Both the position numbers and the translations under genes were made by a program. A stretch of 64,000 nt of DNA from the NCBI GenBank assembly GCA_963717435.1, contig OY970332.1, forward strand, positions 768,001-832,000. The letters run 5' to 3'. Within the stretch, counting starts at the first letter, position 1; the number at the start of each line of letters is the position of its first letter. Below are positions 3,599 to 62,803 of the stretch, piece after piece. The notes under the pieces are model-generated. The model made no database searches, was not told where the DNA came from, and saw nothing but the letters and a program-made list of their open reading frames with translations. This stretch comes from an uncultured bacterium. Lineage in GTDB: Bacteria > Babelota > Babeliae > Babelales > Babelaceae.

Positions 3599-4774
3599 TT
3601 ATAAATTTTTATACAGATTAGCATGATCGCTAATCATTTTTGAATAATCAAAATCTGTTAAGTTTTCTTCGAAGTTTTTTAAACTATCATACAGTTTTCT
3701 GTTTGTGCTTATCTCAAGCATGCCATCAGCAAGTAGCTCCCATTTTTTTTGTGGATATAAATATCCATTTTTGCCATTAATTATGACATCAGATATTCCC
3801 CCGGTGTTATAAGACAAAACTGGAAGCTTAAGTAATCTCGCTTCGATAACCGCACATGGCAGCCCTTCCCAAAGTGAGCTTAATACAAAGCTATCCCAAT
3901 TTTTCATAAATTTAGCTACATCGTGTTGCCAGCTGTGCAAAATAACAACATCCTTCAGATTATATTCTTGAATTTTTTGTTCGATATCTTTTCTTAATAC
4001 CCCGTCGCCGATAATCTCTAATCTTATATTATTATTTTTTTGATAAGCACAGTTAAACGCTTCTATGAGATCTAACAGGTTTTTTTGTGGCTTGAAGCAT
4101 GAGATCGACCCGAATGTGAAGTTGGCGCCATCCCTCGATACATTTTTCTCCGTTTCACTACGAAAAACACTCGGGACGAGCGGGGTGCTGGCAAAATCTA
4201 CTAGAAACTTGTCAGAATCGACAGCGGCGCGTATTAGAGCATATTTTTTCTTGAAACCGGGGATAAGTTTATTTCCAGTTTTAATATCATGGGAAGAGAC
4301 ACAAACAAATTTTGTTGTTATCAGCCCAGTTAATAACTCCGGGATATATATCAAGAGCCATTTTAAATAATTTTGATGCTCATGAAAGCCGTAGCCATGA
4401 ACAGTGTGAACCCTGTTTTTTATTCCTGCAAATAGTGCTGCCCAGCGGCCAACTATACCAGCTTTGGTGCTATGCGTGTGAACTATAATATTGGGGTTAT
4501 TTTTTTTAATTTTTCTCAGCTCTTTAATTAAAATAAAAAAATTTTTTATTTCCAAAAAAATAGCTTTAAAAGAAATTTCTCTTTTAAAGCTATCCAATAA
4601 AATTATATTTTTGTCAGATTTGACACTATCACTTAAGAGTCCATCAGAGCCAGATATTAATATAGTCTCAAAGTTTTCTTTTCTTAAGCCATCAAGCAGA
4701 GCAAGACAAACTTTTTGCGCACCGCCAAGTTCAAGTTTTGTGATTATATAAACTACAGTTTGATTTTTTTGCAT
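3599..4774 (-). CDS. glycosyltransferase family 4 (GT-B), carrying an in-frame palindromic element in the interdomain linker
   Basis: GGAQ, HTHSTKAG, HTVHG and SLWEGLPCAVIEA motifs. Confidence 0.92.
   Translation of the reverse strand: MQKNQTVVYIITKLELGGAQKVCLALLDGLRKENFETILISGSDGLLSDSVKSDKNIILLDSFKREISFKAIFLEIKNFFILIKELRKIKKNNPNIIVHTHSTKAGIVGRWAALFAGIKNRVHTVHGYGFHEHQNYLKWLLIYIPELLTGLITTKFVCVSSHDIKTGNKLIPGFKKKYALIRAAVDSDKFLVDFASTPLVPSVFRSETEKNVSRDGANFTFGSISCFKPQKNLLDLIEAFNCAYQKNNNIRLEIIGDGVLRKDIEQKIQEYNLKDVVILHSWQHDVAKFMKNWDSFVLSSLWEGLPCAVIEARLLKLPVLSYNTGGISDVIINGKNGYLYPQKKWELLADGMLEISTNRKLYDSLKNFEENLTDFDYSKMISDHANLYKNL
4128..4184 (-). repeat. palindromic element copy 1 (in-frame in GT4 gene)
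   Basis: Minus strand reads CCGCTCGTCCCGAGTG-TTTTTCGTAGTGAAACGGAGAAAAA-TGTATCGAGGGATGG; encodes PLVPSVFRSETEKNVSRDG. Confidence 0.9.
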
Positions 4775-12647: not shown

Positions 12648-12668
12648 AGGCTTATACTTTCAGTCGCT

Positions 12669-12760
12669 ATCCCTCGATACATTTTTCTCAGCTTCGCTTT
12701 CAGCTTCCGACTTCGCCAAGGCTTCGACGGACGCGACGTCGGGCACTCGGGACGAGCGGG
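12669..12760 (-). repeat. palindromic element copy 2 with nested hairpin insert
   Basis: ATCCCTCGATAC...CACTCGGGACGAGCGGG ends; internal TCCGACTTCGCCAAGGCTTCGACGGACGCG. Confidence 0.9.
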
Positions 12761-18735: not shown

Positions 18736-18770
18736 TACAGGGCGCGTGTCGTGATGATACGCGCCCTGTA
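18736..18770 (+). repeat. array hairpin copy 1 (terminator-like), followed by a conserved promoter-like block
   Basis: TACAGGGCGCGTGTC-GTGAT-GATACGCGCCCTGTA. Confidence 0.8.
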
Positions 18771-18864
18771 TTCTTTAAAAATTAAATTATTGACTAATAT
18801 CTAGTTATTGTGGAAAACTCATTTTTGGATTAAAAAAATATATTAAAAAAAGAAGGAGATTGTG

Positions 18865-20479: not shown

Positions 20480-20514
20480 TACAGGGCGCGTGTCTTGACG
20501 ATACGCGCCTTGTA
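20480..20514 (+). repeat. array hairpin copy 2
   Basis: TACAGGGCGCGTGTC-TTGAC-GATACGCGCCTTGTA. Confidence 0.8.
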
Positions 20515-20603
20515 TTATTTTAAAATAAATTATTGATTAATTCGTGTCGATTATGAAAAGCTTATTTTTGAATAAAAAAAGAGTAAAAAAGAAGGAGATT
20601 GTG

Positions 20604-22227: not shown

Positions 22228-22264
22228 ATAAAGGGCGTGTGTCATCAAGACACGCGCCCTTTAT
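22228..22264 (+). repeat. array hairpin copy 3
   Basis: ATAAAGGGCGTGTGTC-ATCAA-GACACGCGCCCTTTAT. Confidence 0.8.
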
Positions 22265-28350: not shown

Positions 28351-28383
28351 GCAGGGCGCGGGTCGTGATGATACGCGCCCTGT
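28351..28383 (+). repeat. array hairpin copy 5
   Basis: GCAGGGCGCGGGTC-GTGAT-GATACGCGCCCTGT. Confidence 0.8.
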
Positions 28384-28481
28384 ATTGTTTAAAAAAATTG
28401 TTGATTAATTTGTAGTTATTATGGAAAGCTTATTTTTGAATTAAAAATATGGTTAAGAATATTTTTGACGAAAGAGTTTTT

Positions 28482-47458: not shown

Positions 47459-49537
47459 GTGATTTTAAATAAAATTTATAACAAATTTAAGATTATTGGA
47501 TTAAAGCGAACGTGTGAGCTTGTAAAAAACAAGTTTGCCAGTTCGCTTTTTTTGTTCTTAAACAGAAGACGGGCAAAAATAACCCGTTATATGGGCAAAA
47601 CTGCAAATTACAGTTGGCCGGAAGTCTCGAGTAAATTAAAATTTGATAAAGATTTTGAAAAATTCTGGGAAAATTTTTGCAACAAAAAATCTTATATTAA
47701 TTTTAATAATTTTTTAGAAACTTTAATAACTGATTATAATCTTGATAATCAGGCAAGCATCCCAGATAAAAACTGTGTTAAACTTCTTCAAGAATTCTCT
47801 TCCCCGCTCGTCCCGAGTGTTCTTCGTAGCTTTAGCGTAGAAGAATGTATCGAGGGATCGAGTAAACCCAAGTGGCACTATGATCTTAACGGGTTTTATT
47901 TTGACGCAAATATTTTTTATAAAGACATAAAAATACAAGCTAATATTGGGGAAAATATCGGGCCGGATATCAGAACACTGTGGGAAAAAAACAGATTTAA
48001 TAATATTTTTTTTCTGGGCATAAATAATTCACCGGACAAATTTTTCAGTGACATAAAAGACTGGATAGATAAGAACCCATATTTATATGGGCCCAATTGG
48101 GTTTGCCCGATGGAAGTAGGAATCAGGTCGGTTAACTGGGTTTTGGGCTTTATGTTTTTTAAAGACATAAAATTTGGTGAGCCAAAACAGAAATTTGAGT
48201 TTTGGGAAAAATTTATCTGCTCACTTTATGACCACATGATTTTTATAGAACAAAATTGGGAAATTTATGATACACGAACAAATAACCATTATTTGTCAGA
48301 TCTACTGGGGTATTATTACTTATTAATATTTTTTGATAGTTTAGGCGCAAAAAATTTAAAATCTAAAATTATTTGGGTAAAAAAAGAGTTTTTAAAAGAG
48401 CTTGATAAGCAGATATTACCCGACGGCTCTAGTTACGAGGGCTCGACGGCTTATCATAATTTAATTTGTGAAATAGTTTATTATTTTAAAATTTTAAGTG
48501 ATCAAGAAGAGTTAAAAAATAATTATAATAAATTACTCGACCAAAAATTTAAAAATATGTGCCAATTTGCAAGTTATTTTTATCTTCAGGACCCTAAAGT
48601 TAAAATACCGAAGCAACTTACGCCGCTCGTCCCGAGTGTTCTACGAAGCTCAAAGAGCGAAGTAGAATGTATCGAGGGATGGCGGGGGCAAAATTTTGTG
48701 ACAATAGGCGATAACGACTCGGGCAAAATTGTCGCGGGCCTGCCTGAAAAATTTTTTAAAGTTACTAAATTTGATAACTTGCCCGAAATTGCGCACTTTA
48801 AGGATTTTGGAGTATCTGTTTATAAATCACCGAATATACACATAACTTTGCGCCATCATGCATATAATAAATTACAACCAAGTGCTCATTTCCATAACGA
48901 TTTTTTAAGTATCACGTTAGCAATAAACAATATTCCGGTTATTATCGATCCTGGTTCTTATGTTTATACCGCTTCAAGTTATTGGCGAAATTATTTTCGC
49001 AGCGCTGAATCCCATAATGGGTTTTATATTAAAAATTTAGAACCTGTCAAACTCGATAATTACAATCTTTTTGCTCCCGATATTCCCGAAAAAATTCTAG
49101 AAAATAATAGTCTAAAAAATAATAATGGCATTAAAAAATCGATAGTGTCTAGTCACGAGCTTTATAAAAATCTGGGCCTAAGAGCGGCAAGAAAAATTGA
49201 ATTAGAAAATTTAAATAAAAATATAATTGTCACAGATTCCTGGGATAGTATTTGGGAGAATATTAATAAAACAAACTTAGAAAATCTTGAGAATCTTACA
49301 ACTGTCTGGAGCTTGATTTTGCACCCAGATATTAAAGCAATAAAGCGGACAGATAAGTCTTGGGATCTTTTTTACAACAATATTAAACTTGCGAACATAA
49401 GCTCCAAAGATCTTGATTTTGAAGCAGATTCCTCATGGGCAAGTTTTGTTTATGGCGAAAAAATCGCTGCAACCAGATTAGCCGCGCAAAGCAGCTTGAA
49501 ATTAAAAAATTATGGCTGGCAGATAACTATTTTTTAA
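47459..49537 (+). CDS. heparinase II/III-family (alginate-lyase-like) protein with two in-frame palindromic insertions
   Basis: WEKNRF, NWVCPMEVGIR..NW, NNHY, EGSTAYH, IGDNDSG, HFHND, IDPGSYVY and FRS..SHN motifs. Confidence 0.88.
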   Translation: MILNKIYNKFKIIGLKRTCELVKNKFASSLFLFLNRRRAKITRYMGKTANYSWPEVSSKLKFDKDFEKFWENFCNKKSYINFNNFLETLITDYNLDNQASIPDKNCVKLLQEFSSPLVPSVLRSFSVEECIEGSSKPKWHYDLNGFYFDANIFYKDIKIQANIGENIGPDIRTLWEKNRFNNIFFLGINNSPDKFFSDIKDWIDKNPYLYGPNWVCPMEVGIRSVNWVLGFMFFKDIKFGEPKQKFEFWEKFICSLYDHMIFIEQNWEIYDTRTNNHYLSDLLGYYYLLIFFDSLGAKNLKSKIIWVKKEFLKELDKQILPDGSSYEGSTAYHNLICEIVYYFKILSDQEELKNNYNKLLDQKFKNMCQFASYFYLQDPKVKIPKQLTPLVPSVLRSSKSEVECIEGWRGQNFVTIGDNDSGKIVAGLPEKFFKVTKFDNLPEIAHFKDFGVSVYKSPNIHITLRHHAYNKLQPSAHFHNDFLSITLAINNIPVIIDPGSYVYTASSYWRNYFRSAESHNGFYIKNLEPVKLDNYNLFAPDIPEKILENNSLKNNNGIKKSIVSSHELYKNLGLRAARKIELENLNKNIIVTDSWDSIWENINKTNLENLENLTTVWSLILHPDIKAIKRTDKSWDLFYNNIKLANISSKDLDFEADSSWASFVYGEKIAATRLAAQSSLKLKNYGWQITIF
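47802..47858 (+). repeat. palindromic element copy 6 (in-frame)
   Basis: CCGCTCGTCCCGAGTG-TTCTTCGTAGCTTTAGCGTAGAAGAA-TGTATCGAGGGAT; encodes PLVPSVLRSFSVEECIEG. Confidence 0.92.
48623..48682 (+). repeat. palindromic element copy 7 (in-frame)
   Basis: CCGCTCGTCCCGAGTG-TTCTACGAAGCTCAAAGAGCGAAGTAGAA-TGTATCGAGGGATGG; encodes PLVPSVLRSSKSEVECIEGW. Confidence 0.92.
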
Positions 49538-49626
49538 CTTTGTTTCTATATTCTTGATATTTCATATTTATTTTAGCCAAAATTGTTTTGATATTAAATT
49601 TAAAAAAAATTTAACTGGGACCAACT

Positions 49627-59817: not shown

Positions 59818-59854
59818 GTTTTATAAAATTAAACTACAGAGTAATTCCCAACAG

Positions 59855-59899
59855 CCGCTCGCCCCGAGTGAAATTCCGTAGGAATTTAGTATCGAGGGG
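59855..59899 (+). repeat. palindromic element copy 8 (short)
   Basis: CCGCTCGCCCCGAGTG-AAATTCCGTAGGAATTT-AGTATCGAGGGG. Confidence 0.88.
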
Positions 59900-59939
59900 T
59901 CGGCATAGCGTGAGATTCGTAATAAATCTAATATAATTA

Positions 59940-62574: not shown

Positions 62575-62579
62575 ACCCA

Positions 62580-62636
62580 CCGCTCGTCCCGAGTGTTTTT
62601 CGTAGCGCAAGCGAAGAAAAACGTATCGAGGGATGG
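62580..62636 (+). repeat. palindromic element copy 9
   Basis: CCGCTCGTCCCGAGTG-TTTTTCGTAGCGCAAGCGAAGAAAAA-CGTATCGAGGGATGG. Confidence 0.92.
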
Positions 62637-62693
62637 CGGTAAACACTAATATTATATAATAATTTATATATTTTTATAATTGCAAAAAATGCT

Positions 62694-62748
62694 CATCCCT
62701 CGATACAATCACCTTCACTACGTTTCGGTGATCACTCGGGACGAGCGG
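62694..62748 (-). repeat. palindromic element copy 10
   Basis: Minus strand reads CCGCTCGTCCCGAGTG-ATCACCGAAACGTAGTGAAGGTGAT-TGTATCGAGGGATG. Confidence 0.92.
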
Positions 62749-62803
62749 TTTTGCTTACGTATACAATTTATGTAAAATTCCACAGAATCTAATTATCAAA
62801 AAT

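Follow-up and report, generated by a model that had tools for sequence, protein, structure and literature searches.

A heparinase II/III-like gene of an uncultured Babelaceae bacterium carries two copies of the same palindromic element in frame, which raises the questions of how a short hairpin repeat came to enter one enzyme gene twice and what became of the enzyme. The gene lies in a window of 64,000 nucleotides, the whole stretch of DNA analysed here (contig OY970332.1 of assembly GCA_963717435.1, positions 768,001 to 832,000). An initial annotation of this window had proposed two independent, element-driven insertions that create new protein sequence, and had remarked that the recipient genes were glycan-related. 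We read both inserts as belonging to a REP-like hairpin repeat that is non-autonomous, would be moved by an Ssn-like nuclease and is tolerated in protein loops, and we assign this reading a probability of about 0.68.

The host ORF, a predicted lyase gene, has the Hepar_II_III_N (PF16889) and Hepar_II_III_C (PF07940) domains in a Pfam search, together with the Asn/Tyr/His set of heparinase II/III-like lyases. The nearest solved structures, by profile as well as by fold, are 4MMH and 5JMD, which places the protein in the heparinase III / PL12-like fold class. It shares with these lyases the two-domain fold and the catalytic set, whose roles in heparinase III are tabulated in PMC12088678, and differs from them by its two element-derived loops and its low identity (15-16% to the heparinase III structures). 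The three catalytic residues were matched to 4MMH with an offset of 24 in the residue numbering (Table 1) and are invariant in 98/98 rows of the alignment. The named homologs are Babeliales/Dependentiae proteins (32-42% identical, the best 36-42%), and an AlphaFold model computed from the 98-row alignment reached a pTM of 0.90. The source genome (G000) is a single contig of 1.198 Mb with 34.6% G+C and a completeness of 88.8% by markers. The bacterium, of the phylum Babelota, is intracellular.

The inserted peptides occupy residues 116-133 and 389-408, directly ahead of W139-H140-x-D142 and I416-G-D-N-D-S-G422, where the initial annotation had seen them. As it also stated, both copies have the same strand and frame and different inner hairpins, and the ORF runs through 692 codons without a stop or frameshift; the chance that two copies share a frame is about 1 in 5, by a hand calculation from the frame counts. 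The annotation had advised delimiting the insertions by ortholog alignment. Against 119 homologs, the net insertion is 17 aa ahead of W139, slightly under the 18-21 codons of the element, and 32 aa at the second site, about 10 aa beyond the element. Alignment columns 112-125, 133-135 and 377-408 are occupied in fewer than 10% of the 119 homologs, and neither insert peptide was found at the corresponding sites of this alignment. The extra ~10 codons of insert 2 have no second DNA copy anywhere in the genome. New peptide has thus been added to an open gene, as proposed, but not in clean, element-sized pieces. Since the net lengths in the lyase, and that of ~12 aa in a glycosyltransferase gene of the window, depart from the size of the element, insertion appears to be imprecise, with flanking bases lost or gained. 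A close relative lacking the inserts did not turn up (the best homologs are 36-42% identical), and the 4 of 14 listed runs that were covered showed no junction skipping either insert, so the insertion borders are estimated at the protein level. In the lyase model, pLDDT falls below 50 solely at residues 102-134 and 391-410. Each lyase copy has its nearest kin elsewhere in the genome, and its partner ranks only 32nd and 18th of 92, which argues for two separate events and bears out the claim of independence.

Table 1. Coordinates of the lyase gene, its inserts and catalytic residues, and of other repeat copies. Positions are those of the window, except those preceded by G000:C1, which refer to the source genome.
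Feature	Position	Strand	Basis or remark
Heparinase II/III-like polysaccharide lyase ORF, 692 aa, GTG start	47459..49537	+	ORF listing; host of both repeat insertions
First hairpin copy, core at 47806-47856, encoding S115-S135	47803..47864	+	Pattern and profile search, alignment
Second hairpin copy, core at 48625-48678, encoding T388-G410	48622..48686	+	Pattern and profile search, alignment
Whole net insertion 2, Q377-W408, 32 aa	48587..48682	+	Ortholog alignment; element plus ~10 extra codons
N276	48284..48286	+	Matches Asn240, the heparinase III neutraliser, in the 4MMH alignment
Y332	48452..48454	+	Matches heparinase III catalytic Tyr294 in the 4MMH alignment
H479	48893..48895	+	Matches heparinase III catalytic His424 in the 4MMH alignment
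Third coding copy, in frame within a glycosyltransferase ORF of GT4 type (3599-4774, -)	4124..4184	-	Net ~12 aa against 5 orthologs
Nested double element in the metG / lyase gene interval	47324..47424	.	A + copy sits in the loop of a - copy
Intergenic nested double element	42349..42447	.	Build as at 47324-47424
Intergenic copy	12663..12760	-	Long nested loop
Intergenic copy	32142..32233	-	Long nested loop
Intergenic copy	59854..59906	+	
Intergenic inverted pair (62579-62640 +, 62689-62749 -)	62579..62749	.	Convergent genes on either side
ORFs with close inverted in-frame pairs	G000:C1:632866-635529, 158168-159418, 367880-369529, 866812-870069		ValRS, MurB, PMT-like protein, 1085-aa ORF

The repeat is about 60 bases long and consists of a 5' tag GCTC, a five-pair outer stem, a conserved GAG/TCGA neck and a variable inner hairpin. 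A two-arm pattern found it at 111 genome sites, 100 of them with paired arms, and at none in each of three shuffled genomes. The stem covaries: in a set of 18 hand-chosen copies, taken from the source genome and its relatives, pairing holds for 97.6% of 208 cells, and 10 of the 13 pairs have changed on both sides, a level reached by 0/500 shuffles, while slid controls were 42-59% paired. Single-strand folding of each insert alone gave weak z-scores (-1.7 and -2.3), so the case for structure rests on this covariation. An Rfam scan of positions 42000-49600 of the window returned two matches only, with E-values of 2.6 and 3, neither of them meaningful.

A profile search yielded 113 merged loci, 39 of them inside ORFs of at least 100 aa; after one weak partial match had been dropped and one copy overlapping an over-extended GIY-YIG ORF had been moved to the non-coding class, 112 loci remained, with 37 copies inside 32 ORFs. 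Gene calls were longest-ORF calls (1091 ORFs, 86.7% coding), and about six coding copies lie so close to the 5' end of their ORF that the true start may be downstream of the copy. Copies are 13-fold rarer in coding DNA (0.036 per kb) than in non-coding DNA (0.47 per kb). All six frames occur among the 31 simple coding copies, of which 9 begin in the PLVPSV frame; the copies yield unrelated peptides, and their core length is not divisible by 3 in 12 cases. Five ORFs carry two copies against 0.8 expected; four of the five hold close inverted pairs (Table 1), which are probably single events, and one true double-hit ORF is expected about half the time. The double hit in the lyase is an ordinary outcome of the heavy element load.

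No target-site duplication rose above the null: a shared word of at least 9 bases, mostly an A/T run, occurs in the 45-base flanks of 9/104 copies and in 27/517 shuffled pairs, and neither lyase insert has a flanking duplication. In this the repeat departs from a classical MITE. No RAYT/IS200 partner was found: the genome, 88.8% complete by markers, has no Y1_Tnp (PF01797) match.

A different enzyme gene lies beside the repeat. Inverted copies at G000:C1:1066028-77 (+) and 1066415-65 (-) directly flank a 94-aa, single-domain GIY-YIG ORF (G000:C1:1066108-1066392; PF01541, E 1e-16) whose nearest atlas clusters are all GIY-YIG proteins of 92-93 aa. There are five GIY-YIG matches in the genome, and this gene is the only one with any copy within 5 kb. 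Across 34 related GTDB loci from several phyla, a hairpin matching a broad pattern stands within 140 bases upstream on the same strand in 26, against 0/218 distal windows, and a strict pattern places copies on both sides of the gene in 11/34. The tag varies with lineage, being GCTC in 11 of the 26 loci, GTTC in 7, TGTC in 4, AGTC in 2, and ATTC and GGTC in one each. Among 150 genomes of the phylum, copy number ranges from 0 to 114 (at most 5 for a reversed-pattern control) and is very patchy among kin; 27 of the sampled genomes have 20 or more. A nuclease match occurs in 48 of them, and at least 10 copies are present in 28/48 genomes with the nuclease and 14/102 without (odds ratio 8.8, with kin not independent); 20/48 nuclease-bearing genomes have fewer than 10. 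Six genomes (G085, G141, G003, G031, G053 and G136) hold 31-67 copies and no nuclease match at E 1e-15, for which a lost partner, an unassembled gene or a different enzyme are candidate explanations. Two further small GIY-YIG ORFs of the source genome (G000:C1:1023036-1023248 and 200267-200425; L035 and L038), the one at 200267 with an early stop, lie just 3' of tRNA-like sequences with hairpins of their own.

SsnA is described as binding its hairpin as single-stranded DNA and cutting a few bases upstream (PMC11893778). By analogy, the 94-aa protein would be a putative nuclease of the Ssn-like kind, binding to the hairpin in single-stranded DNA and cutting beside it, and its role in cutting or moving the hairpin is inferred from this likeness. 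Host repair or recombination would then paste hairpin-bearing pieces imprecisely at new sites, without target duplication and with flanking bases lost or gained, and genic copies would survive only where their net length preserves the reading frame and they have landed in a tolerant loop. Uptake of single-stranded DNA may be one route, given the ComF and pilin-like genes present in the genome. In the Ssn paper, cutting and an effect on transformation are reported, and mobility is offered as a hypothesis in the Discussion (PMC11893778).

In a bolder version, the GCTC-tagged hairpin and its 94-aa GIY-YIG gene would be mobile as an active pair throughout Babelota: the nuclease itself would initiate the entry of hairpins into genes, and the same lyase loops would be hit repeatedly in separate lineages. 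Such a pair would supply the missing motor for RPE/CGTC-type protein-coding palindromes and make the genome a natural loop-insertion screen of the whole proteome, tilted to glycan enzymes; we regard it as a tentative possibility. Recurrence does occur in the lyase family. The ortholog of genome G031 (L082, G031:C38) has its own in-frame copy near the N-terminus, seen at the DNA level, and three homologs carry element-derived peptides at other sites, counted by runs of overlapping words (P0110, P0114) or by blastp at E 4e-6 (P0087, P0114). Four more (P0013, P0089, P0092, P0095) look element-like by eye only, at the protein level. A scan of the homologs for 7-residue peptides matched 7/119 against 5.2 in shuffles, so lone matches are noise. 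Long inserts of other homologs cluster at query positions ~112-144 and 412-438. Because the regions hit by the repeat are length-variable loops in this family, such recurrence is expected from tolerance alone.

The inserts might instead persist because the protein no longer matters. On this reading selection on the lyase, an accessory gene, is relaxed or its decay has begun, and the product may be inactive. The gene is indeed accessory, present in 12/31 genomes searched and in 3/18 others of the family, and its end branch in a quick tree is 1.69 against a median of 0.56. It differs at 19/134 near-invariant columns (the median of aligned homologs is 3), 9 of them in residues 111-191 beside insert 1, a stretch that also contains short deletions; 1/97 aligned homologs is equally degenerate, in a comparison that is partly circular. 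The family motifs, called intact in the initial annotation, are so for the catalytic residues and the named motifs, but erosion is seen in the L-G-S motif beside insert 1 and in the K-D-I-K-V-P-W-E-L-S-R block. Against decay, the reading frame is open throughout, and the catalytic triad and 44 invariant columns are kept. In an out-of-sample test the lyase misses 22 conserved residues, where 11 GTDB orthologs miss 1-56 and 16 further homologs 1-10; five of the 11 orthologs miss more than the lyase (29-56), and four of these five are without an element copy by pattern. The element-bearing homologs P0087, P0114 and P0110 miss just 1-5 of the 134. A second allele with insert 1, from two studies, shows five shared differences just downstream, four of them synonymous, and when translated, five of the eight listed strain differences are synonymous, in both cases in contigs of depth 2-4; W139R was seen in one single low-depth contig. 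Decay is moreover not needed, as the same element sits in valS, mnmG, murD and murE, and we consider it unlikely. On the reading that we prefer, the lyase was hit twice, separately, and its product is probably still translated and folded, with added peptides that are probably neutral or mildly deleterious.

Among non-coding copies there is a preference for convergent ends (26/74), the class with the least intergenic DNA. Together with the G-U pairs present in the stem and the copy-rich genomes that have no nuclease match, this would suit a host element acting at the RNA level, as a terminator or stabiliser, that is spread by gene conversion or recombination and has the nuclease gene as a mere neighbour. 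Such an element would leave the entry of copies into genes unexplained, and it accords poorly with a hairpin placed right upstream of the nuclease gene in several phyla, under a tag that varies with lineage, and with copy numbers as patchy as those of a mobile element. We find this account improbable.

The functions of the host genes bear on whether the insertions are selected or targeted, that is, whether glycan and cell-wall enzymes are the element's preferred targets, their new loops changing substrate range or regulation. The 32 hosts include SufBD, PGI, RecR, ComF, MurB, GpsA, a SpoU methylase, MnmG, MnmE, MiaA, ValRS and transketolase, and further WecB, ManC, PGM, GT2, GT4, a NagZ-like GH3, MurD, MurE, AsnB, NurA, two PMT-like proteins and others. 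Glycan or peptidoglycan enzymes make up 10/32 hosts against 14/121 random coding draws (odds ratio 3.5, p 0.012, Pfam E 1e-12), with two weaker PMT-like matches beyond the ten. The comparison set consisted of 121 length-weighted draws from 110 of the 1091 ORFs, and the classes were assigned by hand after the hosts were known; p is 0.054 among Pfam-annotated genes and 0.046 with one gene cluster counted once. A modest glycan tilt exists but is not a rule. The remark that both recipient genes of the window are glycan-related holds for the window, its other coding copy being in a glycosyltransferase, and in the genome-wide census that the annotation had called for it shrinks to this modest enrichment. 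The tilt and the inserts near the same two regions in orthologs of other lineages are what selection or targeting would predict; the use of all six frames with unrelated peptides, the 13-fold depletion of coding copies and the prior length variability of the loops speak against it, and we rate it as very improbable. One glycan cluster (G000:C1:508144-523359, with WecB, a PMT-like protein, ManC and GT2) has, within 20 kb, four coding copies and several more in non-coding DNA, a density that suggests local spread.

That the inserts are repeat-caused assembly artefacts, as an abundant repeat in a metagenome assembly might produce, is barely credible. Each of the two copies is distinct from its partner and from every other one, and another assembly has a 12.5-kb contig, possibly from the same sample, that encodes the identical protein (P0001) from residue 45 on. 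Insert 1 is joined to its gene flanks in contigs of three studies, which largely refutes an artefact there, insert 2 being bridged by none of the listed contig pieces.

Selfish DNA tolerated in protein loops is real here and largely familiar in kind, having first been described in Rickettsia. The Rickettsia palindromic elements RPE-1 to RPE-7 are described in PMC2229807, PMC3767692 and PMC3733652, where in-frame palindromes and inserts longer than the core are reported for RPEs and REPs; an RPE-bearing guanylate kinase is reported to be expressed and active (PMC2229807), and PMC3733652 documents other REPs that have entered one ORF twice. Like the RPEs as portrayed there, the Babelota repeat is a dispersed palindrome of a small intracellular genome, with many in-frame copies in conserved enzyme genes (37 in 32 ORFs), double insertions per ORF, inserts that extend beyond the core ('extended RPE') and likely neutrality. 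It inserts in frame as RPEs do, but it is about 60 and not 100-150 bases long, belongs to Babelota and not to the Rickettsia/Wolbachia lineage, has a different sequence and a variable inner hairpin, and brackets a candidate cognate nuclease gene, all as judged from the RPE descriptions.

Closer in organisation is the Ssn family with its NTS/SRM hairpins (Chenal et al. 2025, PMC11893778). The likeness, as far as that account goes, comprises a single-domain GIY-YIG gene under 150 aa (94 aa here) with hairpins on both sides, an oriented hairpin with an unpaired 5' tag, and many solo copies in the genome. The Babelota tag is however GCTC/GTTC and not HGTC, a long inner hairpin takes the place of the loop, and one third of the copies lie in ORFs, against the 2% given for NTS in N. 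meningitidis. The published SRM consensus matched the genome once, overlapping 0/113 loci (a result that depends on how the N(0-2) notation is read), and had no match in any of the 28 related loci, out of 34, that the scan covered; the GCTC tag and long inner hairpin account for this failure.

The CGTC-tagged REP superfamily, as presented by Di Nocera et al. 2013 (PMC3733652), offers a tagged stem-loop, inverted dimers, a preference for convergent ends, intragenic copies and the lack of a RAYT transposase as common traits. The tag of the Babelota repeat is GCTC and not CGTC (or TGTC/CCTC), and where those REPs have a stem of 8-9 bp and a loop of 4-5 bases, it has a five-pair outer stem, a neck and a loop region of ~10-80 bases. 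Short-loop hairpin forms do occur in related genomes, and TGTC/AGTC-tagged short forms at nuclease relatives in other phyla bridge the Babelota repeat and the CGTC REPs. Since the published SRM pattern overlaps none of its loci, we have not filed the repeat as SRM, CGTC REP or RPE, though it works like them. We found no publication on this Babelota repeat, although the supplementary genome lists of PMC11893778 could include Babelota, and in the TM6 genomics paper the terms palindrom*, heparinase and GIY-YIG do not occur.

The spread of protein-coding palindromes has been a standing question ever since the first accounts of RPEs. The CGTC repeats are said to lack a dedicated transposase (PMC3733652), and PMC11893778 offers a candidate nuclease family, with mobility as a hypothesis. 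The double insertion in the lyase adds little by itself, being a known phenomenon, beyond pointing to two loops where a so far uncharacterised clade of Babelota lyases tolerates insertions. In this genome a high coding load (1/3 of the copies) meets a nuclease gene flanked by the repeat and a sequence variant that the published SRM pattern does not catch, so that it offers a new enzyme-hairpin pair to assay.

Other repeats were noted in passing. The nested double build, an inner copy inverted in the loop of another subfamily's copy, occurs four times, namely at the two window sites of Table 1 and at G000:C1:44209-44307 and 1119485-1119583, which suggests that the composite moves as one. An unrelated G+C-rich palindrome of ~35 bases, followed by a conserved downstream stretch (18736-18771, 20480-20515, 22228-22263 and 28352-28384), precedes members of a tandem paralogous ORF array at ~18.7-30.2 kb. 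A tandem duplication with a period of ~1356 bases spans 37381-39990, its copies being 86-89% identical. Finally, a 632-aa ORF of the random sample (L134:9-1904, +) has a C-terminal Ntox17 domain (Pfam), of the sort seen in polymorphic toxin systems.
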